Assembly (NCBI GenBank): GCA_964383705.1
Contig: CAYLHJ010000001.1
Span: 37,659 to 101,658, forward strand
DNA length: 64,000 nucleotides
Direction of reading: 5' to 3'
From: an uncultured Candidatus Saccharibacteria bacterium
GTDB taxonomy: Bacteria > Patescibacteriota > Minisyncoccia > Phycocordibacterales > Zambryskibacteraceae
Shown piece after piece: positions 24,682 to 60,186 of this stretch. The position numbers were made by a program, and so were the translations under genes. Within the stretch, counting starts at the first letter, position 1. The number at the start of each line of letters is the position of its first letter. Below the pieces are notes generated by a model. It made no database searches. It worked only from the letters and a program-made list of their open reading frames with translations, and had not been told where the DNA came from.

Positions 24682-24718
24682 AAAAACCCCGCAACAAGTT
24701 CTCACTCATTGCGGGGCT
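24682..24718 (-). terminator. Intrinsic terminator for the metalloprotease gene (minus strand)
   Basis: ccccgcaa ... ttgcgggg hairpin; on the minus strand it is followed by a T-run. Confidence 0.5.
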
Positions 24719-24779: not shown

Positions 24780-26081
24780 TTATCTGAAGACGGTTGGGGT
24801 GCTATTGTTTTGCTCACCGAGTAGCGCATTGACGAAGCCAAATGTCGCACCATTTTCCATCTGGATTCGTCTTACTTGCTGGAAGAGTTGGATGTAAGCG
24901 ACGTCCTTCTTGGTGGTTGTTTGCGAGATATTGTAGTTGTACGGACTCCCCGCAGGACAACCAAACATCACAGTAAGCCATCCGCAGCTGTGACCAAAGC
25001 CCAGACCATGAATGAGCTCGTGCTGGATGATCGTGGAGTTGCGAAGGGCGAGAGTTCCTATGAGAGAGATCCCCCCAAAGTCGAAATAAAGATCGCCGTC
25101 GACGAGTTGAGCCGCGCCAAAGCCGGTCTTTGATTGACTTGGGTTGATTGTTGCAAGGAATCCTCTATCGGGGGCTAATTCCGTGATCATTGCTGGCCTA
25201 AAGAGATCAATCCCGAAACTTGCCTCCAGATCAGCAACCCCACCATTCCAAAAAGCAGAGGAGTCAGAGGCCGAGATCGAGTCTGGCCAGCTTCTTCGGT
25301 CAAAGGCAAGCGGTATTGGGAAGTCTTTCCAAATTCCACCACTCTGAAGATTGGGGATGAAGAGGAAACTATCCCAAGCCACTTGCGTTTCAGCTATCTG
25401 AATATCAACCTCTATGCCCGAGAACAGTCCAGCTTGGATTACCCATTTCTTGGGTATAGAGACGAAGGTTATCTTGGTAGTCAGGGCTGTTAGCCGAGGA
25501 ATGCTCGCCTCAGATCGATAGTACGAGTTGTTTGGGCTGATGACTACCACATCAAGGAAATTCCCCATCTTGTTTCTTACAGAGATTGGGGCGGAGATGT
25601 GTCCTAGGCCTGAATTGTCAAGCAGAAGGGAATCTCCCCATGAACCAGAGGACATGATTACCTTGAAGCCTGACACATTGTCATAGCCCTGGGGGCTGGC
25701 CCCGTAGACCTGAACCACCAAATTCGGCGGTGGAACAGCCCTCATTGTGGCTGTTGCGGACTTAACTCCTCCGTCACCGGTGCAGGTTACAGAGAAAGTT
25801 GAATCTTTGTTCAAGCTCGAGGTGAAATTGTAACTGCCAGACAGCGATATACTGTCTTTCCAAGAGCTTGTGCAAGACGAGGCGTTTTCAGAAGACCAAG
25901 ACACGGTCTTCAGAGCGGTGTCACCAATTTCAACTGAAGTAGGTGAGATGGAGACACTTACAGATGGCGCTACTGGCGGTGGTGGAGGGGGAGGAGGCGG
26001 GGGCGGTGATGGTCCGGTTCCGTCTTTGCCTGAACATGCAACAATACCAATCGCCAGGATAAGCATTCTGTGATAACGCAT
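24780..26081 (-). CDS. Lipoprotein zinc metalloprotease, metzincin-type (HExxHxxGxxH), with poly-proline linker
   Basis: Lipobox LILAIGIVAC|SG, then a PPPPPPPPPPPPV linker. C-terminal motif QHELIHGLGFGHS. The gene is visibly much GC-richer (about 50-55%) than its flanks. Confidence 0.65.
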   Translation of the reverse strand: MRYHRMLILAIGIVACSGKDGTGPSPPPPPPPPPPPVAPSVSVSISPTSVEIGDTALKTVSWSSENASSCTSSWKDSISLSGSYNFTSSLNKDSTFSVTCTGDGGVKSATATMRAVPPPNLVVQVYGASPQGYDNVSGFKVIMSSGSWGDSLLLDNSGLGHISAPISVRNKMGNFLDVVVISPNNSYYRSEASIPRLTALTTKITFVSIPKKWVIQAGLFSGIEVDIQIAETQVAWDSFLFIPNLQSGGIWKDFPIPLAFDRRSWPDSISASDSSAFWNGGVADLEASFGIDLFRPAMITELAPDRGFLATINPSQSKTGFGAAQLVDGDLYFDFGGISLIGTLALRNSTIIQHELIHGLGFGHSCGWLTVMFGCPAGSPYNYNISQTTTKKDVAYIQLFQQVRRIQMENGATFGFVNALLGEQNNSTPTVFR

Positions 26082-26252
26082 GGGAAACCTCTTTGGTTAA
26101 TATATGTATGTGTTAAAGAGCGGAGTAAGTTTGTCTAAAAAAATTATAAAATTTAAAACGGATGTATGTCAATGTTATCCACAACTTGTTTGGAATATTT
26201 TCATGAATTTGAGGATTATTTTATGTTATTATTAGGAGTCTAAAGGGGTTTA

Positions 26253-42542: not shown

Positions 42543-43226
42543 CTAGATGAGCCCCTTGTATAAGAAGAACAGTCGAGTCAGAAATTCATATGGATATGCG
42601 GTGATTGCCCATCGCCAACGCTTCTGACTGAACTTGTGTTCGAATTTCATCTTCGGGAGATCTGGTGGAATGATAACCTCGAGGCCAAGGCGCTCATAAA
42701 TCCACCGAGCTCGCCATGCGTGTGGGTAAGTGGCAATTAGAATTACTCTTGACCAACCCATCTCATCGCACAACTCCTTTTGAAGTCTGGCCACGCCATC
42801 ACTGCCACTATATTTACTAGAGAAGATACTTGTGTTGCTATCGAACGGGGTATTTCCCAGAATGTGGATGCCTCGTTGCTTGATGATTCTTCCAACCTCG
42901 GCTTGAGGAAAGATGGGGATACCAAGCATTTTGTGATAATGCTGGGCGCAATCAGCAAGCCCCATGTTTGATTTACTGGGCAACCCACCTTCCAAATCAG
43001 ACGCGGCTTGAGTAACAATTAGCTGGGCGTCTTGTAGACGTCCTTCTCCGGGCGGTTTTCTCCAATTGAAGATACATTGGAATAGGCGGAAAAGAGTTGA
43101 ACTGGGCTCCTTGCGGAGTCTAGCCAAGAAACCGAACATCGATCTCTCCTCGATAGGAATTCTGCGTACCTTACAACGGGCAATATTTCCAGAAGTTATA
43201 TAATCATAACTACAGCCACATGTCAA
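42543..43226 (-). CDS. DUF218 (YdcF/ElyC-like) domain protein, higher GC
   Basis: GWSRVILIATYPHAWRARWIYERLGLEVI resembles the DUF218 core. GC about 50%. Confidence 0.5.
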   Translation of the reverse strand: MTCGCSYDYITSGNIARCKVRRIPIEERSMFGFLARLRKEPSSTLFRLFQCIFNWRKPPGEGRLQDAQLIVTQAASDLEGGLPSKSNMGLADCAQHYHKMLGIPIFPQAEVGRIIKQRGIHILGNTPFDSNTSIFSSKYSGSDGVARLQKELCDEMGWSRVILIATYPHAWRARWIYERLGLEVIIPPDLPKMKFEHKFSQKRWRWAITAYPYEFLTRLFFLYKGLI

Positions 43227-47388: not shown

Positions 47389-47802
47389 ATGGCGACCATA
47401 AATCAGCTAGTAAAAAGAAAAAGGAAGGTCCTTCACCGAAAGTCAAAATCGGTGGCTCTTACTCGTGGATTTAACACTATTAAAAATCGTCCAGTTCCAT
47501 TTTTCTCTCCTTTTAAGCGCGGCGTTTGCACTAAAGTTACTACTAAAACCCCAAAGAAACCAAACTCGGCTATTAGAAAGATTGCTCGTGTTCGTCTTAC
47601 TAATGGCATGGAGGTAACGGCATATATTCCAGGTATGGGCCACAACCTACAGGAGCACTCAGTTGTCGTGCTTAAGGGTGGCCGTGTAAAGGATGTTGGA
47701 CTTCGATATTCAATAGTGCGTGGCGTGCTTGATGCTGGAGGGGTTGAGAGCCGAAGAAAAGGACGAAGCCAATACGGAACAAAGTTACCAAAGAAACAGT
47801 AA
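47389..47802 (+). CDS. rpsL: 30S ribosomal protein S12
   Basis: [48 protein letters not shown]. Confidence 0.95.
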
Positions 47803-48312: not shown

Positions 48313-50466
48313 ATGGAAAGAGATTATCCGCTAGAGAGAGTTAGAAATTTTGGAATTATTGCTCACATTGATGCTGGGAAAACTACTACTTCTGAGCGAG
48401 TACTTTATTACACTGGTTCTCAGCATAAAATTGGAGAAGTTCATGAGGGAGAAACCACCACTGACTGGATGGAGCAAGAGCGCGAGCGCGGCATTACTAT
48501 CACAGCAGCAGCTGTTACTTGTTTTTGGAGTCAGACATATCTACCAGTAGAAGAAAGAAAGAAAAAAGAGAATAAATATCGTTTTAATATTATTGACACT
48601 CCGGGTCATATTGATTTTACTGTTGAAGTAAAGCGCTCTCTTCGTGTTCTTGACGGTGCTGTTGTCGTTTTTGATGGTGTTGCCGGTGTTGAACCACAAT
48701 CTGAGACGAACTGGCGTTATGCAGAAGATGCTAATGTGCCAAGAATCTGTTTTATAAACAAACTTGATAGAACAGGAGCCTCTTTTGAACGGTCTTATAA
48801 ATCTATTCTTGATCGACTTTCAAAAAAAGCAGTCCGTATGCAAATTCCTGTCGGCGAAGAGGGAAATCACGAGGGAGTGGTTGATCTTTTGAAGATGAAA
48901 ATGTATGCCTTTGAAGGAGAAATGGGTAATCAGGTTGTTGAAAAGGAAATTCCAGAAAATTTAAAAGCAGATGCAGAAAAATATCGCCATGATTTGATTG
49001 AGCGCATTGTTGAAAACGATGAGTCTCTTATGAACGACTATCTTGAAGGGAAAGAAATCCCACTTGAAACTTTAAAGAAGGTTCTTCGCAAAGCAGTTAT
49101 CGAAAATAAAGTATTTCCAGTTTTCACTGGTTCGGCTTTGAAAAATAAGGGGGTTCAGCTTGTTCTTGATTCTGTTGTCGATTATCTCCCATCACCGCTC
49201 GATATTCCTCCAGTAAAAGGTATTGATCCTCGCAATGGTGAAGAGGTTACTCGTCACGCATCAGACACAGAACCTTTTTCTGCTTTGGCATTTAAACTTC
49301 AAGCCGATCCGTTTGTAGGCCAACTTACATTCTTCCGCGTATACTCTGGAACGGTTGAATCGGGAACATATCTATACAACTCAACGACAGGGGAGAAAGA
49401 AAGACTCGGACGAATAGTGCGCTTGCAAGCAAATCAAAGAGAAGAAGTAAAAAAAGTTTTTGCTGGAGAAATTGCCGCTGCGGTAGGTCTTAAAAATGCA
49501 AAAACTTCTCATACATTTTCTGATGAGAATAGCCCAATCATTCTAGACCAGATTAAATTCCCAGAGCCGGTTATCTCACTTCGTATTGAACCCAAAACAA
49601 AAGCTGACCAAGAAAAAATGGGTATTGCGCTCAAGCGTCTTTCAGATGAAGACCCAACATTTAGAATTAAAAGTGATGCTGATACGGGAGAAACTGTCAT
49701 TATGGGTATGGGCGAACTTCACTTGGAAATCATTGTTGATAGGATGAAACGCGAATTTAGCGTGGAAGCAAATGTCGGCAAACCTCAGGTTGCATACAAA
49801 GAAACTATTACAGGAACTGCAGAAGTGGAAAATAAATATATCAAGCAATCAGGAGGAAAAGGCCAGTATGGTCATGTGAAAATAAATATCAAACCACTTC
49901 CTCAGTATGATCCAGAAGAAAAAGTTCCAAAGAATGCTACTCGAGAGCCAGGATTTGAATTCATTGATTCAATTAAGGGTGGAGTTATTCCTCAAGAGTT
50001 TATTCCTGCGGTTGAAAAAGGAATTCGTGAGGGAATGGAGCGTGGTGTCGTAGCCGGATTTAAGATGACGGATATTTCAGTCGAATTAACTTATGGTTCT
50101 TATCACGATGTGGACTCATCTGAAATTGCATACAAAATTGCGGCATCGCAAGCATTTCAAGAAGCTGCTCGTAAAGCAAAGCCGGTTATTCTAGAGCCGA
50201 TTATGAAAGTGGAAGTTGTTGTCCCAGAGAAATTTATGGGCGATATTACTGGAAACCTCTCTTCAAAGCGTGGCCAAGTGGAAGGTATGGAAGATAGAGG
50301 AGAGCTTAAGGTTATCAAAGCCAAAGTTCCTCTTTCAGAAATGTTTGGTTATGTTACGAACCTACGGTCTATGACAGAGGGAAGAGGAAGCTCAACGATG
50401 GAGTTTGACCACTATGCTATAGTGCCTCAAAATGTCGCTACTTCTATCATCGAAGCAAGACAGTAA
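48313..50466 (+). CDS. fusA: Elongation factor G
   Basis: RNFGIIAHIDAGKTTTSERVLYYTG G-domain and the full five-domain length. Confidence 0.95.
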   Translation: MERDYPLERVRNFGIIAHIDAGKTTTSERVLYYTGSQHKIGEVHEGETTTDWMEQERERGITITAAAVTCFWSQTYLPVEERKKKENKYRFNIIDTPGHIDFTVEVKRSLRVLDGAVVVFDGVAGVEPQSETNWRYAEDANVPRICFINKLDRTGASFERSYKSILDRLSKKAVRMQIPVGEEGNHEGVVDLLKMKMYAFEGEMGNQVVEKEIPENLKADAEKYRHDLIERIVENDESLMNDYLEGKEIPLETLKKVLRKAVIENKVFPVFTGSALKNKGVQLVLDSVVDYLPSPLDIPPVKGIDPRNGEEVTRHASDTEPFSALAFKLQADPFVGQLTFFRVYSGTVESGTYLYNSTTGEKERLGRIVRLQANQREEVKKVFAGEIAAAVGLKNAKTSHTFSDENSPIILDQIKFPEPVISLRIEPKTKADQEKMGIALKRLSDEDPTFRIKSDADTGETVIMGMGELHLEIIVDRMKREFSVEANVGKPQVAYKETITGTAEVENKYIKQSGGKGQYGHVKINIKPLPQYDPEEKVPKNATREPGFEFIDSIKGGVIPQEFIPAVEKGIREGMERGVVAGFKMTDISVELTYGSYHDVDSSEIAYKIAASQAFQEAARKAKPVILEPIMKVEVVVPEKFMGDITGNLSSKRGQVEGMEDRGELKVIKAKVPLSEMFGYVTNLRSMTEGRGSSTMEFDHYAIVPQNVATSIIEARQ

Positions 50467-50493
50467 TTTTCTCTAAGGTTTGTTAAATAATAT

Positions 50494-50520
50494 CAAAAAC
50501 CCCTCAGTCGAGGGGTTTTT
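50494..50520 (+). terminator. fusA intrinsic terminator
   Basis: aaaaacccctc agtc gaggggtttttg. Confidence 0.6.
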
Positions 50521-50526
50521 GATATA

Positions 50527-50556
50527 TTGACTATTTGGTTATATTTGTGTTATGAT
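50527..50556 (+). promoter_or_regulatory. Cassette A promoter TTGACT-18-TATGAT
   Basis: Begins immediately at the terminator tail. Confidence 0.35.
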
Positions 50557-50601
50557 TAAGTTAGATTCGGTTAAGTCCACAGGCCTTTTCAGGAGAGAAA
50601 A

Positions 50602-50985
50602 ATGAATCGTCAATGGATTCGTGCATTATCCGTACTTTTTGTGCTTCTCCTATGCTACTTGTTTCTTAACTGGGCAGTCGGAGGAAAGTGTTCGGAGTTT
50701 CAGAGAGGGCCATCATCCCAAATTGAAGCCGATTCTTTCGGAACTTGGGGTGAGGACCTCGGGGTGATGAGGGGGCAATTCTTTTTGTTGAATGACAGCA
50801 CCCTTGCCATGGTGCTGGAAGAAGTGGTGGCAAAGGGGCAACCATATAAGATCGAAGGTATCCTTTGCGTTGAGTGTCCGCGTCAGGACCTAGGGTTAAT
50901 CCTTATGGGTGATATCGCCAAGTTCATTTACCCAGGGGACAGTGACTACAATCATTACGCCGCTAAGTTTCTCCTGCAGAAATAG
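50602..50985 (+). CDS. Cassette paralog A: small signal-anchored protein with CxxC and conserved C-terminal tail DSDYNHYAAKFLLQK (higher GC)
   Basis: N-terminal RALSVLFVLLLCYLFLNWAVG TM, 127 aa, GGAG RBS. C-terminal tail shared with the two downstream ORFs. Confidence 0.6.
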   Translation: MNRQWIRALSVLFVLLLCYLFLNWAVGGKCSEFQRGPSSQIEADSFGTWGEDLGVMRGQFFLLNDSTLAMVLEEVVAKGQPYKIEGILCVECPRQDLGLILMGDIAKFIYPGDSDYNHYAAKFLLQK

Positions 50986-50988
50986 CTT

Positions 50989-51026
50989 CCCCACGAAAAC
51001 CTCACGGTGTTTCGTGGGGTTTTTGT
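50989..51026 (+). terminator. Cassette terminator copy 1
   Basis: ccccacgaaaac ctcacggt gtttcgtgggg ttttt; near-identical to copy 2. Confidence 0.6.
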
Positions 51027-51080
51027 TTGATGTATTTTAATTTATGGCGAGTTCCAAAGGTCAGGATACTTTACGATTAT

Positions 51081-51109
51081 TTGACAAAGCTATAGTTAAT
51101 TGTCATAAT
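51081..51109 (+). promoter_or_regulatory. Cassette B promoter TTGACA-17-CATAAT
   Basis: Consensus -35 with 17-nt spacing. Confidence 0.4.
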
Positions 51110-51157
51110 GCTGATCAGAGTGGCAAAACCACACACAGACCTTTTCAGGGGAGAATA

Positions 51158-51508
51158 ATGCCCAGTCCTTCTCGCAGGTTTCCCAGACTCCTGGATTATT
51201 TTGTCATGGGGGCTCTTTTGATTGCGCTGCTGGCTGCGGTAATTTTCGGACGGGGCCCCGAAAAGAGACATATTCCGGTGAAGACGGTGGTGGATAAGCT
51301 TCAGCTTCTCGGGGGTGGAGAGATCATCAATACCGGTGAACGGCTCTATTTCACCACGCAGGATGGCCAGAGCATGGTTGCCTGCATCAAATGTGAGGAG
51401 ATCTCAGTCTACTGGCTTAAGTCTCCACGCTTCGAGACGATCGAAGTTGTTAACCCCTTCGACTCAAGCTACGAGCACTACGCAGCCAAGTTTCTCCTGC
51501 AGAGATAA
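51158..51508 (+). CDS. Cassette paralog B: small signal-anchored protein with CxxC and C-terminal tail DSSYEHYAAKFLLQR (higher GC)
   Basis: Start MPSPSRRFPRLLDYFVMGALLIALLAAVIF after GGGGAG RBS (the provided ORF 51044.. is a 5' in-frame extension). 116 aa. Confidence 0.6.
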   Translation: MPSPSRRFPRLLDYFVMGALLIALLAAVIFGRGPEKRHIPVKTVVDKLQLLGGGEIINTGERLYFTTQDGQSMVACIKCEEISVYWLKSPRFETIEVVNPFDSSYEHYAAKFLLQR

Positions 51509-51511
51509 CTT

Positions 51512-51548
51512 CCCCACGAAAACCCCACAGTGTTTCGTGGGGTTTTTG
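51512..51548 (+). terminator. Cassette terminator copy 2
   Basis: ccccacgaaaac cccacagt gtttcgtgggg ttttt. Confidence 0.6.
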
Positions 51549-51549
51549 T

Positions 51550-51577
51550 TTGACATTTTTATTTTTGATGATATAGT
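51550..51577 (+). promoter_or_regulatory. Cassette C promoter TTGACA-16-TATAGT
   Basis: The -35 overlaps the terminator tail exactly as in cassette B. Confidence 0.35.
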
Positions 51578-51617
51578 TTATTTGGATTCGGAACAATCAC
51601 ATTCTCGGAGAATAACA

Positions 51618-52007
51618 ATGTTTGAATACATTCGGCGTCATCGGATAGGATTCTGGGCCACAATGTACGTGATCATGTTTTACTCGGTCTTTTATGGCTG
51701 GTTCTACCTGGATGACAAGAAGTTCCAGGAGAGTCTAACCTCTGCCGACCGTGAACACATCGTCTCTATCCGTGAGAGAGCCCAAACTCTTGAAGGAGGA
51801 GAGTTTCTTCTCATGCGCGATGGTTCGGTGAAGCAGGTTGTTCCTCCAGGACACTCCTCTGGCGACATACCTACCAGATCTTCACAGGGGACTGATCGCT
51901 GGTTACTTAACAACGACAGGTTTATCTGGAGTATTGTAAAGATCGTCACCCCCGATGATTCTGTCGAATACAGTGACCTGGGCCGGAAGTTCGTTCTCCA
52001 GAAGTGA
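51618..52007 (+). CDS. Cassette paralog C: small signal-anchored protein with C-terminal tail DDSVEYSDLGRKFVLQK (higher GC)
   Basis: Start MFEYIRRHRIGFWATMYVIMFYSVFYGWF. 129 aa. The provided ORF 51315..52007 is an out-of-context extension overlapping paralog B. Confidence 0.55.
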   Translation: MFEYIRRHRIGFWATMYVIMFYSVFYGWFYLDDKKFQESLTSADREHIVSIRERAQTLEGGEFLLMRDGSVKQVVPPGHSSGDIPTRSSQGTDRWLLNNDRFIWSIVKIVTPDDSVEYSDLGRKFVLQK

Positions 52008-52025
52008 TTGGATTGATGAATGATA

Positions 52026-52067
52026 GCCCCCATTTCTTGCAAGACTCAAGAAACGGGGGCTTTTTTC
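52026..52067 (+). terminator. Terminator of cassette C
   Basis: gcccccatttcttg caagact caagaaacgggggc tttttt. Confidence 0.6.
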
Positions 52068-52098
52068 TTGACTATTCAAACTCTTTTGTTATTATAAT
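52068..52098 (+). promoter_or_regulatory. tuf promoter TTGACT-(17-19)-TATAAT, same terminator-abutting layout as the cassettes
   Basis: ttttttcTTGACTattcaaactcttttgttatTATAATgc. Confidence 0.4.
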
Positions 52099-52224
52099 GC
52101 TCACGCTTTTTGCGCCTTTTTCTTTTGGTTCGCAAAAAAGTTAAGCATTATTAATCATTTTAGTTGTGTGAGTTTGCCAAACTCTCGCGCGGCGGCCCCA
52201 CACAAGTAAACAATTTATAAAATT

Positions 52225-53415
52225 ATGGCAAATTTTGACCGTTCAAAGCCTCACGTCAACGTTGGAACCATTGGTCACGTTGACCACGGCAAAACAACTC
52301 TTACGGCTGCTATCCTAAACGTGCTAAATCGCGCGGGAAAGACAGCAACAATTAAGGGGGTTGATCAGATTGACAAAGCTCCTGAGGAAAAAGCTCGTGG
52401 TATTACGATTTCTCTATCACACAATGAGTATGAGACAGATGCGCGACACTATGCGCACATTGATGCTCCTGGTCACGCTGACTACATCAAGAACATGATT
52501 ACGGGTGCCGCTCAAATGGACGGCGCCATCTTGGTTGTTGCTGCAACAGACGGTGTGATGCCTCAAACAAGAGAGCACGTATTGCTTGCAAAGCAGGTTG
52601 GTGTTCCAAAAATTATTGTTTTCCTAAACAAGGTAGATATGGTTCCAGATAAGGAGCTTATTGATCTTGTTGAAGAAGAGGTTCGTGAGCTTTTGACAAA
52701 ACAAGGTTTTGACGGGGCTGGCGCACCAGTTATTCGTGGTTCAGGTCTTAAGGCCTTGGAAGCATCAGGAATTGATGATGAATGGTCAAAGGCAGTTCTT
52801 GCTTTGGCTGATGCCTTAGATACATACATTCCTGTTCCAGTTCGAGAAATTGATAAGCCATTTCTCATGCCAGTTGAAGACATCTTCTCAATTGAAGGCC
52901 GAGGAACTGTTGTTACTGGAAGAATAGAGAGAGGACAAATAAAAGTTGGTGAAGAAGTTGAAGTTGTTGGTCTTAAACCAACAGCAAAGACTGTTGTCAC
53001 TGGAATTGAAATGTTTAACAAGTCTCTTGACTCAGGTATGGCTGGAGACAATGCCGGAATTCTTGTTCGAGGATTAAAGAAGGAAGATATCACTCGTGGA
53101 CAAGTTCTTGCAAAGCCAGGATCAGTTAACCCTCATACAGATTTTGAAGCGGAAGTTTATATCCTTAAAAAGGAAGAAGGAGGACGACACACCCCATTTT
53201 TCACAGGGTACAAGCCACAATTCTATATCCGAACGACTGATGTTACGGGGGAAGTTACTCTTGCAGAGAAAGTAGAAATGGTTATGCCTGGAGACACTGT
53301 TACATTTAAAGTAAAACTCGTTGCTCCGGTAGCCCTTGAAGATCAGATGCGCTTCGCTATTCGAGAAGGAGGAAAGACTGTTGGAGCTGGTGTTGTAACT
53401 AAGATTAACGCCTAA
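52225..53415 (+). CDS. tuf: Elongation factor Tu
   Basis: [21 protein letters not shown]; full length 396 aa. Confidence 0.95.
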
Positions 53416-53448
53416 CAAAAAAGTTTTTACTTTTTAGCAAAAATTAGA

Positions 53449-53832
53449 ATGGCAACGAAAGCGACAACTAAAAAAACTCCAAAGACGGCAAAAGCTCCTT
53501 CAAAAGTTAGTCAGAAAGAGGGTGGAATATCTAAGCTTCGAATCAGAGTGCGAGCCTATGAGTATAAGATACTTGATGTATCAGTAAAACAAATTATAGA
53601 CACGGCGCTTAGATACGATGCGGAAGTCTTAGGTCCAATACCGCTTCCTACAGAGATAAAAAAATATACAGTTAATCGTGCTTCCTTTGTTTTCAAAAAT
53701 GCGCGAGAACAATTTGAAATGAGGATTCACAAGAGGTTAATTGATATTATAAATCCAACTCCGAAGCTTATTGAGTCGCTTACCAATCTCTCACTTCCAT
53801 CTGGAGTCAATATAGACGTAAAGATAATGTAG
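53449..53832 (+). CDS. rpsJ: 30S ribosomal protein S10 with roughly 25 aa Lys/Thr/Ala-rich N-terminal extension
   Basis: [13 protein letters not shown]...GPIPLPT...[17 protein letters not shown]. Confidence 0.9.
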
Positions 53833-53860
53833 TGTTGGCTATCGGTGTTTAGGTAATACA

Positions 53861-53892
53861 GATAAAGTTGCCCGGAGACGGGCAACTTTATC
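53861..53892 (+). promoter_or_regulatory. Perfect 14-bp stem with GAGA tetraloop between rpsJ and rplC
   Basis: gataaagttgcccg gaga cgggcaactttatc. Confidence 0.4.
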
Positions 53893-53971
53893 TCAAAGAA
53901 AGTGGTTCGATTGTTTCTAGACAATGAGCAAAAAATCAGTAGTATTGGTTTCCGATCGGAACCTGGCTTCA

Positions 53972-54583
53972 ATGAAATTCATTCTCGGCAAAAAAGAAAA
54001 TATGACTCAGGTCTTCACAGAAGAAGGCAAGCTTATTCCTGTTACGAAACTTTCCGTTGGCCCCGTTGTTGTTACCCAGGTGAAAGACTTACAAAGAGAT
54101 GGATATAAGTCTGTCCAGATTGGATATGGTGCTAAAAAAGAAAAAAGAGTAAATAAGGCACTAAAGGGTCATTTTAAAAACCTCGGCCTTTTTTCTTATC
54201 TCAAAGAATTTCCAGTTGATGATAAAGACTCTTTTTCGGTGGGCGACACCATTAATGTTTCATCTTTTGCTCCAGGAGACTCCATTGTTATTTCTGGTAT
54301 ATCAAAAGGAAAAGGATTTCAAAGTGTCATCAAGCGACACGGATTTAAAGGTGGACCTAGAAGCCATGGACAGAAACATTCAGAGCGAGAACCGGGTTCT
54401 ATTGGAGGAGGTCTTCGTAACAAAGTCCCAAAGGGCATGAGAATGGCAGGCCGAACAGGTAATGACAGAGTCACTTTGAAAAGTTCGAAAGTCATTGCGG
54501 TTAATCCAGAAACAAATGAAATTCTGGTTTCAGGGCCAATTCCTGGACGACGGGGCACGATAATTGAAATTAGCGCTAAGTAA
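53972..54583 (+). CDS. rplC: 50S ribosomal protein L3
   Basis: MKFILGKKENMTQVFTEEGKLIPVT...; an alternative upstream start at 53924 would add 16 aa. Confidence 0.85.
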   Translation: MKFILGKKENMTQVFTEEGKLIPVTKLSVGPVVVTQVKDLQRDGYKSVQIGYGAKKEKRVNKALKGHFKNLGLFSYLKEFPVDDKDSFSVGDTINVSSFAPGDSIVISGISKGKGFQSVIKRHGFKGGPRSHGQKHSEREPGSIGGGLRNKVPKGMRMAGRTGNDRVTLKSSKVIAVNPETNEILVSGPIPGRRGTIIEISAK

Positions 54584-54584
54584 T

Positions 54585-55346
54585 ATGGATACTAATCTTT
54601 ACAGCCAAGATGGAAAATCATTAGGGAAGTTAACGCTACCTTCTAGGATTTTTTCTTTGCCATGGAATGCTGATTTGGTTCACCAGGTGGTTGTTTCAAT
54701 GCAATCAAGCGCTCGCAATTCTATTGCTCATACAAAAACTCGCGGAGAAGTTCGTGGTGGAGGTAAAAAGCCATGGAAACAGAAAGGAACTGGTCGTGCT
54801 CGACATGGTTCTACTCGTTCTCCAATTTGGGTTGGTGGAGGTGTAACTCACGGACCTCGTAGTGATAAGAATTATGATAAAAAAGTGAATCGAAAGATGA
54901 AAACAAAAGCGCTTTTCACCATTCTTTCTAAGAAATATAAAGATGGGGAAATAACCTTCATTGATGATTTAACTCTTAAAGAGCCTAAGACCAAGGAAGC
55001 GCTAGCTTCTTTGAAGGGTTTTTCTAATATTCCAGCACTTAAGACTGCGATTGCAAAAAAATCGAATGCTCTTTTTATCGCAGTTCCAGAAAAAAAAGAT
55101 TTTGTATCGAGAGGATTCAATAATATTGGAAATGTGTCTCTTGAAGAGACCAGAAATATAAATCCTGTTTCAATTCTTTCCTATAAGCATTTAGTCTTTA
55201 TTTATCCAGAAGAGACTTTTAGGATTTTAGAATCAAAATTAGGTGGCGATAGTGAAGTAAAAGATAAACCAACAAAACCCGCTAGAGAAAAGAAAGTGAA
55301 AAAAGAAATGGTTAAGGTTAAGAAAATCGCAAAGGCAAAGAAATAA
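54585..55346 (+). CDS. rplD: 50S ribosomal protein L4 with Lys-rich C-terminal extension
   Basis: GGGKKPWKQKGTGRARHGSTRSPIWVGGGVTHGP. Confidence 0.9.
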   Translation: MDTNLYSQDGKSLGKLTLPSRIFSLPWNADLVHQVVVSMQSSARNSIAHTKTRGEVRGGGKKPWKQKGTGRARHGSTRSPIWVGGGVTHGPRSDKNYDKKVNRKMKTKALFTILSKKYKDGEITFIDDLTLKEPKTKEALASLKGFSNIPALKTAIAKKSNALFIAVPEKKDFVSRGFNNIGNVSLEETRNINPVSILSYKHLVFIYPEETFRILESKLGGDSEVKDKPTKPAREKKVKKEMVKVKKIAKAKK

Positions 55347-55352
55347 AATTTT

Positions 55353-55712
55353 ATGGCTCTTCTTTCACGAAAAAAGAAAACAGAAGAAAAAAATGATGGA
55401 GCATCAAAAGCTTTGTCATTAAGCGTAGCCAAATCAAGCAATGCGCATGTGCTTTTGCGCCCGAGAATAACGGAAAAAGCTAGTATGCAAGCAAGCGAGG
55501 GGAATGTTTATGTCTTTGAGGTTGATATGATGGCGACCAAAAAAGATGTAAAAAACGAGGTTGTGCGATTATACAAAGTTACTCCGTTAAAAGTGGCAGT
55601 GGTTCCTATAAAGAGGAAACAGGTTATTGTGCGAGGTAAGTATGGCCAAACTTCTGGTGGCAAAAAAGCTTATGTCTATTTGAAAAAGGGAGATAAGATT
55701 GAATTTATATAA
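55353..55712 (+). CDS. rplW: 50S ribosomal protein L23
   Basis: LLRPRITEKASMQASEGNVYVFEVDMMATKKDVKNEV. Confidence 0.9.
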   Translation: MALLSRKKKTEEKNDGASKALSLSVAKSSNAHVLLRPRITEKASMQASEGNVYVFEVDMMATKKDVKNEVVRLYKVTPLKVAVVPIKRKQVIVRGKYGQTSGGKKAYVYLKKGDKIEFI

Positions 55713-55714
55713 TT

Positions 55715-56557
55715 ATGAAAAAGTATAGACCAACAACTCCGTCTCGACGAGAGACCTCATCAATCCATTTTGCAAAGATCTTAACTGCAAAAAGTCCGGT
55801 AAAGTCTTTGACCTATGGTTTTCGTAGAGCTGTCGGAAGGAATCATCACGGCAGGGTTACTACGCGCCATAAAGGGGGAGGACATAAGAGACTTTATCGT
55901 CTCGTTGATTTTTCTTATAACAAACCAAATATTCCTTTTACTGTAAAAACCATTGAATACGACCCAAATCGATCAGGTTTTATCGGTCTTGCGCATTATG
56001 GAGATGGTGAGCGTCGATATGTTCTTCTTCCTAAAGGTGCAAAGGTGGGCGATTCATATATTGTTTCAGAAAATGCACCAGAAACTCCTGGGAATAGACT
56101 TCCACTTAAGAAAATTACTGTCGGGACATTTATTTATAATGTTGAAGTAAAACCAAAAGGTGGGGCAAAGCTTGGCCGTTCGGCTGGTAACTATATTGAG
56201 GTTGTCGCCAAAGACGGTGGATATGTTGATATCAAAATGCCTTCTACTGAGGTCAGGAAAGTTTCCGAGAATTGCTGGGCTACGATAGGCGAGGTTTCAA
56301 ATGACGAGAATAGGCTTGTTAATCTTGGAAAAGCGGGCAGAAGTCGTTGGCTAGGAATTAGACCAACGGTCCGTGGATCTGCTATGAACCCGGTTGATCA
56401 TCCATATGGAGGTGGAGAAGGTCGTGCTGGTCGGGGTACTAGAAGGGCAAAAAGCTTTACCGGTAAGCCTACTGGTAAGGGTCAAAAGTCTCGTCGAGCA
56501 AAGAAATACTCAAATAAGTTCATAGTCAGGAGAAGAAAGGTTGGAAAAGCCAAGTAA
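55715..56557 (+). CDS. rplB: 50S ribosomal protein L2
   Basis: GRNHHGRVTTRHKGGGHKRLYRLVDF...MNPVDHPYGGGEGR. Confidence 0.95.
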   Translation: MKKYRPTTPSRRETSSIHFAKILTAKSPVKSLTYGFRRAVGRNHHGRVTTRHKGGGHKRLYRLVDFSYNKPNIPFTVKTIEYDPNRSGFIGLAHYGDGERRYVLLPKGAKVGDSYIVSENAPETPGNRLPLKKITVGTFIYNVEVKPKGGAKLGRSAGNYIEVVAKDGGYVDIKMPSTEVRKVSENCWATIGEVSNDENRLVNLGKAGRSRWLGIRPTVRGSAMNPVDHPYGGGEGRAGRGTRRAKSFTGKPTGKGQKSRRAKKYSNKFIVRRRKVGKAK

Positions 56558-56658
56558 TTTCCTTTTTCACCATATTCTTCAAGGTAATATTTGACAGTGG
56601 TGAGCTCTTTCTATAGTATACTTTGCAAGCTCTTCTCAGAGCTTCTTTCATTTAAGTT

Positions 56659-57006
56659 ATGACACGGTCATCAAAAAAAGGTCCATACGTATACGAAAAA
56701 CTTCTCAAGAAAATTGAGGGGAAGAAACCGGGAGAAACTGGCTCTATTAAGACTTGGGCACGAGATAGCCAAATTGCTCCAGAAATGGTTGGATTCTCCT
56801 TCGCAGTTCATAATGGCAAAGATCATATTGATGTCTTTGTTACTGAGGACATGGTCGGGCATCGATTGGGTGAGTTCTCTCCGACACGAAAGTTCGTCAA
56901 ACATGGAGGAAAGATGCAGAAGGAACTTGAACAGAAAAAGAAAGAAGCAGAAATCTCAGCAGCTCAAGCTGCAAAACCGGCTGCGACAACGGCTCCGGCT
57001 AAATAA
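56659..57006 (+). CDS. rpsS: 30S ribosomal protein S19 with Ala/Lys-rich C-terminal extension
   Basis: SSKKGPYV...[30 protein letters not shown]. Confidence 0.9.
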
Positions 57007-57011
57007 TTTTT

Positions 57012-57389
57012 ATGGCAATTGTATCGGCACAACTTTCAGATTATCGTCAGTCACCTCGCAAAGTGAGAGTGGTAGCAACTCTTGTCCGTGGGAAAAGTGT
57101 TCCAGATGCTCTTTCAGGATTGCAATTTTTAGGGAAGAAGGCATCACTTCCTATTGCAAAGCTTATTAAATCAGCAGTTGCAAATGCTGAATTTCAGAAA
57201 TTAGATAAAGAAAATCTTTTTGTAAAAGAACTTCGAGTTGATGCTGGTAGCATTCTTTACCGCAGACAGCCAGCTTCACGTGGCAGATCCTCGACCATTC
57301 GCAAACGCAGTAGTCATGTAAAAGTTGTGCTTGAAGAACGAGCTCCGAAAATGAAGAAAACTAAAATAAATAAAGAAAGTAAATCTTAA
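57012..57389 (+). CDS. rplV: 50S ribosomal protein L22
   Basis: SPRKVRVVATLVRGKSVPDALSGLQF. Confidence 0.9.
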   Translation: MAIVSAQLSDYRQSPRKVRVVATLVRGKSVPDALSGLQFLGKKASLPIAKLIKSAVANAEFQKLDKENLFVKELRVDAGSILYRRQPASRGRSSTIRKRSSHVKVVLEERAPKMKKTKINKESKS

Positions 57390-57393
57390 TTTT

Positions 57394-58062
57394 ATGTCTC
57401 ATACAGTCCACCCATATTCTCATAGATTAGGAATTATACGCGATTGGAAATCGAGATGGTTTGGGCCTAAGACAAAATATAAAGATTTTTTGCGTGGAGA
57501 TTTGGTGATTCGTGCATTTTTAGAAAAAAAATTAAAAGGGTTATTTGTTAGTTTGATAGAAATAGAGAGGAATGAAAAGGTTCTTCGCATTATTGTTGAA
57601 ACCTCTCGTCCAGGAATGATTCTTGGTAGGGGTGGGGACGGAGCCGTTAAACTTCGAGATGAAATAATTAGCACCCTAAAGAAGCGAGGTCTTTTGAATC
57701 AAAAAGAAGAAGTTCGCCTCGACATTAAAGAAATAAAATCTCCAGAATCAAATGCTTCTATTGTTGCTCAAATGATTGCGGAAGGTCTTGAAAAAAGAAT
57801 GCCATATCGTCGTGTTGTAAAGCAGATTGTAGAAAAGGTTATGGCTAACCGAGATGTTCTCGGTGTTAAAGTTACTGTTGCAGGCCGATTGGGCGGGGCT
57901 TCTATCGCTCGCTCAGAAACAAAAAAGTTAGGAAGAATTCCACTACAAACATTTAGAGCTGATGTTGATTTCGCTCGTCATGAAGCTAAATTGCCTTATG
58001 GTAATCTTGGAATTAAAGTTTGGATTTACCGAGGCGAGATTTTTGCAAAAAAACCTGAATAA
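57394..58062 (+). CDS. rpsC: 30S ribosomal protein S3
   Basis: HPYSHRLGIIRDWKSRWF; KH and S3-C domains. Confidence 0.95.
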   Translation: MSHTVHPYSHRLGIIRDWKSRWFGPKTKYKDFLRGDLVIRAFLEKKLKGLFVSLIEIERNEKVLRIIVETSRPGMILGRGGDGAVKLRDEIISTLKKRGLLNQKEEVRLDIKEIKSPESNASIVAQMIAEGLEKRMPYRRVVKQIVEKVMANRDVLGVKVTVAGRLGGASIARSETKKLGRIPLQTFRADVDFARHEAKLPYGNLGIKVWIYRGEIFAKKPE

Positions 58063-58073
58063 TAAAAAATACT

Positions 58074-58490
58074 ATGTTGCTTCCTAAGAAAGTAAAATTT
58101 AGAAAATGGCACACGATGCGAAAAAACCCATCAAAGATTGGTGTGGCAACTCGTGGTGTAACGGTTGCTTTCGGGTCTTATGGCTTGAAAGCAGTTAGTG
58201 CCGCACGAATCAAATCTAATCAAATTGAGGCGGCAAGAAAGGTGCTTTCTCGCTCAATAGGTAAAACGGGAAAGCTCTGGATTCGTATTTTTCCTGATAT
58301 GCCGTATACTGCAAAGCCGGCTGAAGTTAAGCTTGGAAAAGGAAAGGGAGACCTACAAGGTTATGTCGCTCCAGTTAAGCCAGGGAGAATCCTTTTTGAA
58401 GTCGACGGTATTTTAGATGTGGAAGCTAAGGAAGCCCTTCGTAAGGCTGGCACTAAGCTTCCATTAAAAACAAAAATTGTTTCCCGATAA
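58074..58490 (+). CDS. rplP: 50S ribosomal protein L16
   Basis: MLLPKKVKFRKWH...GKLWIRIFPDMPYTAKPAEVKLGKGKG. Confidence 0.95.
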   Translation: MLLPKKVKFRKWHTMRKNPSKIGVATRGVTVAFGSYGLKAVSAARIKSNQIEAARKVLSRSIGKTGKLWIRIFPDMPYTAKPAEVKLGKGKGDLQGYVAPVKPGRILFEVDGILDVEAKEALRKAGTKLPLKTKIVSR

Positions 58491-58495
58491 ATTTT

Positions 58496-58681
58496 ATGAA
58501 AGATATTGTTCAAAAAGATGATGCGGATTTAAATAAAATGATTCTTGAAAAAGGAGATGAGCTCCGCAATTTTCGTTTTGCTATTTCTGGCAGTAAAACT
58601 AGAAATGTTCGTGAAGGACGTGCTCTCCGAAAAGTTATCGCACAAGTTAAGACGGAATTGTCTCGCAGAGCCAAATCATAA
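58496..58681 (+). CDS. rpmC: 50S ribosomal protein L29
   Basis: 61 aa, position between L16 and S17; LRNFRFAISGSKTRNVREGRALRK. Confidence 0.85.
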   Translation: MKDIVQKDDADLNKMILEKGDELRNFRFAISGSKTRNVREGRALRKVIAQVKTELSRRAKS

Positions 58682-58686
58682 ATAGT

Positions 58687-58944
58687 ATGGATAACAAACT
58701 AACCGAAAACAAAATATCTCAAGGTAAGACTTTTAAGGGTCGAGTTGTTTCGAACAAAATGAAAGACACCGTAGTGGTCGCCGTTGAAAAGATTACAAAA
58801 CACCCACAGTATGGAAAGTTTGTAAAACACAAGATTCGAATGAAGGCGCATGACGCTGGAAATACATTAAACGTTGGCGATGTTGTCACAATTCAAGAAA
58901 CAAAACCGATTTCACGAGATAAGAATTTTATAGTTGTAAAATAA
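58687..58944 (+). CDS. rpsQ: 30S ribosomal protein S17
   Basis: FKGRVVSNKMKDTVVVAVEKITKHPQYGKF. Confidence 0.9.
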   Translation: MDNKLTENKISQGKTFKGRVVSNKMKDTVVVAVEKITKHPQYGKFVKHKIRMKAHDAGNTLNVGDVVTIQETKPISRDKNFIVVK

Positions 58945-58945
58945 T

Positions 58946-59317
58946 ATGATACAACCTCGCTCTATTGTAAAAATTGCAGATAACTCCGGTGCTAAAATCG
59001 GACGCATATTTAAAGTGCTCGGAGGGTCAAAGAAGCGTTACGCTCAGTTGGGGGATATGGTCGTACTCTCGGTCCAAACCGCTCAACCAAGAAAATCTAT
59101 AAAGAAAAAAGATGTTTTGTATGCGGTAGTCGCTCGTCAAAAGTTTCCATTTCGCCGAACCGACGGTTCTTATATCCGATTCGATGAAAATGCCGTAGTT
59201 ATTGTTGATAAAGCAAAACACGAACCGCTTGCTGGTCGTGTATTCGGTCCGATACCTCGTGAGTTGGGAGAAAAAGGGTTTCAGAAAATTATTTCTCTTG
59301 CTCCAGAAGTTGTATAA
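58946..59317 (+). CDS. rplN: 50S ribosomal protein L14
   Basis: MIQPRSIVKIADNSGAK. Confidence 0.95.
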   Translation: MIQPRSIVKIADNSGAKIGRIFKVLGGSKKRYAQLGDMVVLSVQTAQPRKSIKKKDVLYAVVARQKFPFRRTDGSYIRFDENAVVIVDKAKHEPLAGRVFGPIPRELGEKGFQKIISLAPEVV

Positions 59318-59322
59318 AAATC

Positions 59323-59634
59323 ATGAAAATCAAGAAAGAAGATAATGTCATAGTTATTGCCGGCAAGGATAAAGGGAAAACAGGGAAAGTTGTCCGCGCT
59401 TTTCCTCGCAAAAATCTCATTGTTATTTCTGGAATAAATTTGCGCAAAGTCCATAAACGACCGACCAAGAGTGGTCAGAAAGGCCAGATTATTGATCAGG
59501 CAGTACCAATGCATGTTTCAAATGTTCTTTTAGTTGACCCAAAAAATAATAAAGGAACTCGAGTCGGTTACAAAAACGTTGATGGAAATAAAGTAAGAAT
59601 TGCAAAGAAAAGCGGATCTACGATTGGTAAATAA
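59323..59634 (+). CDS. rplX: 50S ribosomal protein L24
   Basis: MKIKKEDNVIVIAGKDKGKTGKV KOW motif. Confidence 0.9.
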   Translation: MKIKKEDNVIVIAGKDKGKTGKVVRAFPRKNLIVISGINLRKVHKRPTKSGQKGQIIDQAVPMHVSNVLLVDPKNNKGTRVGYKNVDGNKVRIAKKSGSTIGK

Positions 59635-59640
59635 TATTTT

Positions 59641-60186
59641 ATGAAGTCAATTCAGGAAAAAACAAAACATAGTTACGAAAGCCTCAAGGGAGATTTGGGT
59701 TATAAAAATCGTATGCAAGCGCCAAAGTTTTTAAAGGTGGTTATTAATGTGGGGACTGGTTCTTTTAAGGATAAGAAAAAAATTGAACTCGCCATTGATA
59801 GACTTTCAAAGATAACGGGCCAAAAACCATCTACAAGGGGAGCAAAACAATCAATTGCAGCTTTCAAGGTGAGACAGGGGGATCCGGTCGGTCTACAAGT
59901 TACTCTTCGTGGTAAGAGGATGTATGATTTTCTGGATAAACTCATAAATGTAGCCTTGCCTAGAACCAAGGATTTCCGTGGTATAGCAACTTCGGGTATT
60001 GATGAAATGGGTAATTATAGCCTTGGAATCAAAGAGCATTCCATCTTTCCAGAGACGACAGATGAAGAATTAAAGGATATTTTTGGCCTTTCTGTCACTA
60101 TGGTTACAACAGCAAAGAATAAAAAGGAGTTAGATTCGTTCTTGAAATCGTTAGATTTTCCCTTTAAAAAGGAAAAGGCTAAATAA
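59641..60186 (+). CDS. rplE: 50S ribosomal protein L5
   Basis: YKNRMQAPKFLKVVINVG...DFRGIATSGIDEMGNYSLGIKEHSIFPE. Confidence 0.95.
   Translation: MKSIQEKTKHSYESLKGDLGYKNRMQAPKFLKVVINVGTGSFKDKKKIELAIDRLSKITGQKPSTRGAKQSIAAFKVRQGDPVGLQVTLRGKRMYDFLDKLINVALPRTKDFRGIATSGIDEMGNYSLGIKEHSIFPETTDEELKDIFGLSVTMVTTAKNKKELDSFLKSLDFPFKKEKAK

Follow-up and report, generated by a model that had tools for sequence, protein, structure and literature searches.

In the canonical str operon the genes run rpsL-rpsG-fusA-tufA, and in Proteobacteria fusA and tufA are co-transcribed (PMC6735719). Small multigene insertions were described in Proteobacteria by Brandis, Cao & Hughes (2019) at the inter-operon sites rrnB-tufB and str-S10 (PMC6735719). 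Phage morons are defined (PMC3594210) by a promoter and a terminator of their own and by a composition distinct from that of their neighbours. We report here on an array of three small open reading frames (ORFs), A, B and C, between fusA (elongation factor G, EF-G) and tuf (EF-Tu) in a 64,000-nt stretch of DNA from an uncultured Candidatus Saccharibacteria bacterium (contig CAYLHJ010000001.1), called the window below; coordinates are those of the window. Taking architecture, topology and acquisition together, the array probably consists of recently acquired, autonomous, moron-like cassettes for membrane-anchored proteins in a spacer between two transcription units, an account that we hold with some reserve.

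The window retained the canonical gene order, with rpsL (47389-47802), rpsG and fusA followed, after a 1758-bp spacer, by tuf, rpsJ, rplC and rplD. It differed from the canonical operon in having a strong terminator after fusA, four predicted terminators in the spacer, and a tuf gene with its own conserved promoter and a leader of ~125 nt. The array was similar to the insertions in Proteobacteria, being new DNA in a neutral slot between the end of an operon and the next promoter and lacking mobility genes (PMC6735719). Unlike those insertions, it occupied the fusA|tuf slot, which has turned into a boundary between transcription units in Patescibacteria. It resembled phage morons (PMC3594210) in that each unit has a predicted sigma-70-like promoter, an intrinsic terminator, a distinct composition and a small accessory product, and in that the array appears to be inserted between genes that are adjacent in other genomes. 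It differed from them in its position between housekeeping genes of a cellular chromosome, in consisting of three tandem paralogues and in lacking any phage or PHROG similarity.

The three ORFs lie on the same strand as the flanking genes and were paralogous, as a preliminary description of this DNA had proposed (BLASTP E-values of 2e-7 for A/B, 3e-4 for A/C and 0.004 for B/C), with ~25% identity to one another. ORF A (50602-50985, + strand, 127 amino acids, aa) had a predicted anchor helix at residues 8-26, an ectodomain with the motif CVEC and the C-terminal tail PGDSDYNHYAAKFLLQK. ORF B (51158-51508, +, 116 aa), starting at an ATG preceded by a Shine-Dalgarno (SD) sequence, had an anchor helix at 11-29, the motif CIKC and the tail PFDSSYEHYAAKFLLQR. 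ORF C (51618-52007, +, 129 aa) had an anchor helix at ~10-31, a second helix at 42-55, five strands, a C-terminal helix at 115-127 and the tail PDDSVEYSDLGRKFVLQK. The CxxC motif noted earlier in A and B was absent from C and from both outside homologues described below. The longest version of ORF B (154 aa from 51044), given by mechanical ORF calling and by NCBI, starts upstream of the B promoter and lacks an SD sequence. The 116-aa start has one, together with a leader homologous to that of A, and the same start was chosen in one Logan gene call.

All three ORFs had SD sequences and a codon pattern in which GC1>GC2<GC3. Their GC content at third codon positions (GC3) was 0.54, 0.62 and 0.57 in A, B and C respectively, against 0.286±0.035 in 34 host ORFs (z 7-9), among them such highly expressed genes as fusA, tuf and those of ribosomal proteins. 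The contrast with the flanking genes lay mainly at these positions (0.54-0.62 vs 0.29-0.31), and overall GC was 40% in fusA and 44% in tuf. The foreign GC asserted in the preliminary description was thus borne out by GC3, whereas its figure of 35-38% for fusA and tuf was not. The stretches between the array ORFs had 33-40% GC. By its codon composition, we regard the array as foreign.

Each ORF formed part of a tandem promoter-ORF-terminator unit, and this layout, along with the N-terminal anchor helix, was recovered by promoter scan, hairpin energies and hydropathy, as previously outlined. The four top promoter-like sites in a scan of 47-54 kb were those upstream of A, B, C and tuf (10-11/12, all with TG). 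On both strands of the whole window 23 sites scored at least 10/12; five of them also had the TG, and four of these five were the A, B, C and tuf promoters. The predicted promoters of the array were situated 34-42 nt upstream of the start codons. The hairpins after fusA, A, B and C had folding energies (dG) of -20.1 to -24.6 kcal/mol and z-scores of -4.2 to -8.1, each followed by a T-run.

The order of these elements, all on the + strand, was as follows. The predicted fusA terminator (50490-50525; dG -24.6, z -8.1) has a perfect 16-bp stem between A- and T-runs. Promoter A (50527-50556; TTGACT-18-TATGAT with TG) begins 2 nt past this hairpin and leads to the 5′ untranslated region (UTR) and SD block ccttttcaggagagaaaa (50578-50601), which has 89% identity to the block of B. 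Terminator A (50989-51026; dG -20.4, z -4.2) consists of a 31-nt hairpin element and TTTTTGT. It is followed by a decayed -35-like TTGATG (51027-51032), whose position is homologous to that of the TTGACA of promoter C. The promoter of B found by the scan (51081-51109; TTGACA-17-CATAAT with TG) lies 55 nt beyond this decayed hexamer. Terminator B (51512-51549; dG -20.1, z -4.2) is near-identical to terminator A, and promoter C (51550-51577; TTGACA-16-TATAGT with TG) abuts its T-run. Terminator C (52025-52067; dG -21.3, z -4.5), a hairpin followed by CTTTTTTC, has a sequence of its own, unrelated to terminators A and B. The tuf promoter (52068-52095; TTGACT-16-TATTAT with TG) comes directly after it and forms the right edge of the variable spacer, since homology with related genomes starts exactly there. 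The -35 hexamer therefore abuts the preceding terminator at A, C and tuf, as had been claimed for every unit, but not at B.

The near-identity of the A and B terminators and the relatedness of the 5′ UTRs, both pointed out earlier, were confirmed. A 92-nt tract with 87% identity between A and B comprised the last 13 codons and the terminator, and a 27-nt block of the 5′ UTR had 89% identity. The ORF bodies between these common ends were essentially unalignable as DNA. Similarity between A and C was located instead in the promoter region (~73%). Since A and B share the UTR and the 3′ end while A and C share the promoter region, the units are mosaics. The 3′ half of the fusA terminator also resembles the A and B terminators. 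The latter (50985-51030 and 51508-51553) can fold in two registers. In one, the stem CCCCACGAAAC/GTTTCGTGGGG precedes a free U-run; in the other, ACGAAAACC(C/U)C.../...GGGGUUUUUGU, the U-run is paired to an upstream A-run. The second is the minimum-free-energy fold and, because of its pairing, the two modelled terminators look like the bidirectional type. An Rfam search of the spacer gave sub-threshold matches only, at the terminators.

A HMMER profile of A, B and C was run against 1.84 billion representatives of ~15 billion proteins. It retrieved the trio and two further proteins, P0004 (122 aa, E 7e-5) and P0005 (E 2e-4), which come from two other metagenomic organisms and are not at fusA-tuf. 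The known family has five members in three organisms. Word-indexed searching with the five-sequence profile, over 5.8 billion clusters, found known members only, and the same kind of search with B recovered B alone. A degenerate DNA motif scan of Joint Genome Institute (JGI) metagenomes gave 11 matches, of which 10 were chance matches and one was a longer P0005 contig. No additional member was detected when the family profile was compared with 12,046 ORFs from the window and all fetched loci, and homologues of the array were absent from 80 tuf loci of relatives and from the rest of the window. Searches of A, B and C against Pfam, NCBIfam, PADLOC and PDB sequences returned zero matches at E up to 10. 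As the preliminary description had it, no known family could be assigned. To judge from these searches, the family is orphan, undescribed and extraordinarily rare.

P0004 is encoded between an RNase J-like gene and a major facilitator superfamily (MFS) transporter. The P0005 gene lies downstream of tRNA-Leu(caa) and is oriented convergently to purN and leuS. Both genes have a TTGAC-type promoter and a terminator of their own. The family is therefore not bound to fusA-tuf, and it is without a conserved partner gene.

All five members possess an N-terminal hydrophobic helix and a strand motif of the LL[IL]MRD[GS] type, degenerate in A and B. In each, a single strong 19-aa hydrophobic window was found, near the N-terminus, the next-best window scoring at most 1.05. 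The N-terminal flank of the helix is basic in all five (+1 to +4) and the C-terminal flank is acidic in C, P0004 and P0005. Neither a lipobox nor an AXA cleavage site was evident in the family members, and no LPXTG motif or C-terminal transmembrane segment was found. These features predict single-pass signal anchors with an N-in/C-out orientation.

An AlphaFold2 model of C, built on the five-sequence alignment, reached a predicted local distance difference test (pLDDT) score of 81.3 and a predicted template modelling (pTM) score of 0.60. It contained a helix at residues 2-39, a helix at 42-55, five short strands and a C-terminal helix at 115-127. In the predicted ectodomain of ~90-100 aa, a small five-strand beta-barrel of the SH3/Sm-like kind would lie between a helix and the capped amphipathic helix at the C-terminus. 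Foldseek searches with this model returned generic small beta-barrels only (Hfq at E ~0.03), and the viral fold library BFVD gave no match better than E 4e-3. The SH3/Sm-like barrels compared (FeoA 6e55, Hfq 5dy9 and XC5848 2e12) had 10-20% identity and no common motifs, with scores too low for homology or function to be assigned. What sets the array family apart from these barrels is its membrane anchor at the N-terminus, together with an additional conserved helix at the C-terminus. As no Cys or His was conserved across the family, a peptidase role is unlikely.

The conserved C-terminal tail of the preliminary description was recovered. In all six frames of the window the pattern [KR]F[LV]LQ[KR]-stop was found at three places only, the ends of A, B and C, and both outside homologues share the tail, with the core P-x-D-x(2,3)-Y-x(4)-[KR]-F-[LIV]-L-Q in all five members. 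The codons used for the tail differ between C, P0004 and P0005, so it is as protein that the core is conserved. The 92-nt tract common to A and B continues into the non-coding terminator, so the tail identity of these two is largely shared DNA. Part of the tail conservation thus reflects DNA shared recently, through gene conversion or a partial duplication, and was not brought about by selection for the peptide.

The preliminary description had suggested that the tail is a signal for sorting, tail-anchoring or degradation, in which case the array would encode substrates of one dedicated machinery. We consider this improbable. The core is the best-conserved part of all five proteins and lies at the C-terminus or two residues away from it, as a signal might. 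However, it is amphipathic and charged and not hydrophobic, the next-best hydrophobic windows lie elsewhere, and it has neither LPXTG nor another known C-terminal sorting architecture. P0004 has two extra residues past the LQ, no partner gene co-occurs across the three genomic contexts, and the near-identity of the A and B tails runs into non-coding DNA. In the model of C the tail is a confident helix (block pLDDT 81-88), in which the P-x-D-S segment resembles a helix N-cap and Y, L and F fall on one hydrophobic face (i/i+3/i+7), as would be the case for a structural element. Given this cap-like segment and hydrophobic face, we infer that the tail is the last structural helix of the domain and not a sorting signal or degron.

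An origin of the cassettes as phage morons, for instance as superinfection exclusion genes of phages of the candidate phyla radiation (CPR) that block phage entry at the membrane, was judged just as doubtful. The promoter-gene-terminator layout and the composition unlike that of the neighbours agree with the definition of a moron (PMC3594210), and small membrane-anchored products and diversified paralogues would suit such a function. Against this, the array had no DNA or protein similarity to 50,697 phage records, its best PHROG match had an E-value of 0.035, BFVD matches were at E 4e-3 or above and PADLOC yielded nothing. Plasmid sequences gave no match. There were no phage genes nearby, and both outside homologues are located among housekeeping genes.

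The fusA-tuf spacer was surveyed in 35 Patescibacteria-like loci with both genes and, for comparison, in 17 loci from other phyla. The distance ranged between 117 and 5264 bp in the former (median 794; 28 above 400 bp and 15 above 1 kb) and had a median of 116 bp in the latter. Spacer contents varied by genome and included giant proteins of 1111-1547 aa, a recurrent ~95-aa protein, a recurrent acidic Phd/YefM-like protein and assorted membrane or secreted proteins. None of these genes was related to A, B or C and, unlike the array, they had a composition native to their own genomes. A hairpin and T-run followed fusA in most relatives. Upstream of tuf, homology began exactly at a conserved TTGACT -35 hexamer, ~160-180 nt before the start codon, and continued through the leader.

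In this clade, then, fusA appears to end one transcription unit and tuf to start another. Since a terminator is the rule after fusA and the conserved promoter and leader of tuf are its own, the array would sit between two units and not inside an operon. The view taken earlier, that a highly conserved junction in a housekeeping operon had been invaded, has to be given up for this lineage: the spacers are long, their contents unrelated and tuf has its own promoter. The survey portrays the fusA-tuf spacer as a permissive, lineage-variable site whose right edge is the conserved tuf -35 hexamer. A flexible fusA|tuf slot in CPR genomes was absent from the literature searched. CPR genomes often contain orphan membrane proteins and foreign islands, and the surprise of an invaded conserved operon dissolves in this clade. 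The closest EF-Tu matches had 85% identity and came from Patescibacteria metagenome-assembled genomes (MAGs) labelled Kaiserbacteria, Paceibacterota or 'Saccharibacteria'. By this placement, the source organism is an uncultured CPR bacterium (~38% GC).

Slightly less probable again than the two alternatives above is that A, B and C are native, lineage-specific genes, an array that arose in place when an ancestral gene of the spacer was duplicated in tandem, with a GC content raised by selection. Promoter, UTR and terminator sequences recur between the units, which are of similar length (500, 523 and 518 bp); the fusA terminator is like those of A and B in its 3′ half, and the array promoters resemble host-type promoters elsewhere in the window. 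However, GC3 lies 7-9 standard deviations above the host ORFs, and the 80 tuf loci of relatives and the remainder of the window hold no homologue. Paralogues diverging here to 25% identity would have had time to adopt the host composition, and the autonomous layout is seen again at two further GC-rich islands of the window.

We favour acquisition of the array as three horizontally transferred, self-contained transcription units in the slot between the fusA-terminated and tuf-initiated units. In each, an extended -10 promoter of the sigma-70 type would be followed by a short leader with an SD sequence, then by a small ORF and its intrinsic terminator. All three genes keep a foreign GC3 despite ~25% identity, which makes it most likely that they diverged in the donor and arrived jointly. 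Old paralogues from a higher-GC donor, probably transferred en bloc, would not yet have drifted to host composition. A and B would since have exchanged or retained, by recombination, the 5′ UTR and the 3′ end with its terminator. Transcription is predicted to be constitutive, driven by strong promoters, insulated by terminators and independent of fusA and tuf. The products would be abundant small-barrel proteins, anchored N-in/C-out and exposed on the outer face of the membrane. Their most likely role would be that of an envelope or surface module for binding or shielding, such as in contact with the host cell or in excluding phages. This suggestion draws on topology, rarity, divergence of the paralogues and the moron-like layout, and any specific biological role is rather unlikely to be the right one.

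Several points weigh against this account. The promoters are consensus predictions and the terminators energy predictions. The helix of B is basic on both sides, which makes its topology less certain. The predicted fold rests on an alignment of five sequences, and the AlphaFold2 model of A, from three sequences, was too poor for use (pLDDT 49). No link to any pathway was found in the genomic context of the family, and no donor genome was identified. Look-ups with fusA and rpsJ for a relative with an empty site gave the same strain and one relative at 97.2% identity only; the exact tuf protein was not on record, and no variant fusA was present in the protein clusters. No empty-site relative was found, which leaves the insertion itself putative.

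A broader proposal can be made, at long odds, that fusA|tuf in Patescibacteria is a recurrent capture site for 'chromosomal morons'. The array would then be a surface small-barrel family amplified and diversified in an arms race, such as over recognition of the host cell by the episymbiont or over CPR phage exclusion, with gene conversion keeping the regulatory ends uniform as the ectodomains diverge. If the acquisition account is true, a textbook conserved junction became a flexible accessory-gene slot in CPR, with its right edge exactly at the tuf -35 hexamer, and very small genomes can acquire foreign genes as ready-made transcription units. The window contains three GC-rich islands that have near-consensus promoters, with a terminator abutting the next promoter at the array units and at one other island. 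It would also define an orphan family of membrane-anchored small-barrel proteins, with five members in three organisms among ~15 billion proteins. The practical value is modest.

A site-specific recombination array of the integron kind, in which the hairpins would be recombination sites and not terminators, is very unlikely. Imperfect 31-nt hairpin elements do recur 3′ of successive ORFs, and the cassettes measure ~0.5 kb. However, neither the spacer nor the neighbouring genes that were read (~45.7-55.3 kb) include an integrase, and the hairpins, as read from the sequence, have none of the RYYYAAC/GTTRRRY cores of attC sites and lead into T-runs. Integron cassettes are normally without promoters, whereas every cassette here has one, and the C hairpin is unrelated to those of A and B.

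The array was also found in separate Logan assemblies. SRR12816583 spanned all junctions from fusA to tuf, SRR12822862 covered fusA, A and B, and SRR12822863 covered fusA into A, all at 99.9-100% identity. These assemblies exclude chimerism at fusA-A-B-C-tuf. Least likely of all is that the locus was created by an error of assembly or binning, or that the ORFs are chance reading frames in GC-rich spacer DNA, since, although the source is a MAG and GC-rich DNA gives long chance ORFs (such as one of 112 aa, antisense at 51704-52042), the junctions were the same in independent assemblies and the ORFs have the GC1>GC2<GC3 pattern, SD sites, protein-level homologues and a confident fold prediction for C. 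The available data on the array represent one genotype only. The sole difference between Logan and the window at the locus was one mismatch in SRR12822862, a nonsynonymous V-to-I change in the B ectodomain (…QSMVACIKC… to …QSMIACIKC…). The relative with 97.2% nucleotide identity came from an unrelated run (Logan SRR33452760); it matches the window at 52536-59832, and its contig begins inside tuf.

The genes read around the array (~45.7-55.3 kb) were an S2P-like peptidase gene, rpsL, rpsG, fusA, tuf, rpsJ, rplC and rplD. On the left flank, fusA (48313-50466, +, 717 aa) has host composition (GC3 0.29), and Pfam EF-G domains were detected on an identical Logan gene. On the right flank, tuf (52225-53415, +, 396 aa) likewise has host composition (GC3 0.31).

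The leader of tuf (52096-52224, +) has blocks conserved in relatives, namely a mini-hairpin with a U-run, CATTATTAAT and TCTCGCGC. The tuf promoter together with a leader of ~125-165 nt was conserved between the window (52068-52224) and loci L001, L002, L007, L011, L013, L014, L019 and L042. The mini-hairpin, CGCA-N(3-5)-TGCG followed by a U-run, comes directly after the tuf -10, and apparently compensatory variants were seen in L019 (CTGCA/TGCAG) and L001 (GCGA/TCGC). The leader had no Rfam match, its single-sequence fold was not significant (z -0.68), and folding of the alignment, in which MAFFT misaligned the mini-hairpin, gave no consensus. It may be an undescribed leader or attenuator element.

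In the closest relatives the ~95-aa protein (…EWGL…EEQI.MV…LYQAIL…) was encoded directly upstream of tuf (L001 5543-5833, L007 5542-5829 and L012 4006-4287). It belongs to no Pfam family and is preceded by a giant protein (1547 or 1111 aa) or by a 368-aa protein. Many Parcubacteria have a small acidic protein of 67-124 aa between fusA and tuf, often ending in EDLPF or EDLPL; it was immediately upstream of tuf in L020, L024, L027, L032, L033, L035, L037, L044, L047 and L054. Its N-terminus had sub-threshold Pfam similarity (E 2.6e-5 to 2.7e-3) to the Phd/YefM antitoxin, but a toxin gene next to it was not apparent. This acidic Phd/YefM-like protein is a clade-specific resident of the spacer.

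Two further GC-rich islands were present in the window. One, at 24780-26081 on the - strand (GC3 0.52), contains an ORF of 433 aa that resembles a lipoprotein and has a poly-Pro linker of 12 residues, no Pfam match and the motif HELIHGLGFGH, of the metzincin type (HExxHxxGxxH). It has a 12/12 promoter (TTGACA-18-TATAAT at 26172), and a terminator near 24690 abuts the TTGACA of the next gene, like the layout of the array. Judging by this repeated layout, the foreign genes of this genome tend to arrive as autonomous units of promoter, ORF and terminator. The other island, at 42543-43226 on the - strand (GC3 0.48), had no Pfam match. Its likely true start is an SD-preceded ATG near 43139 with a TTGACA just upstream, and a small ORF lies downstream on the same strand.

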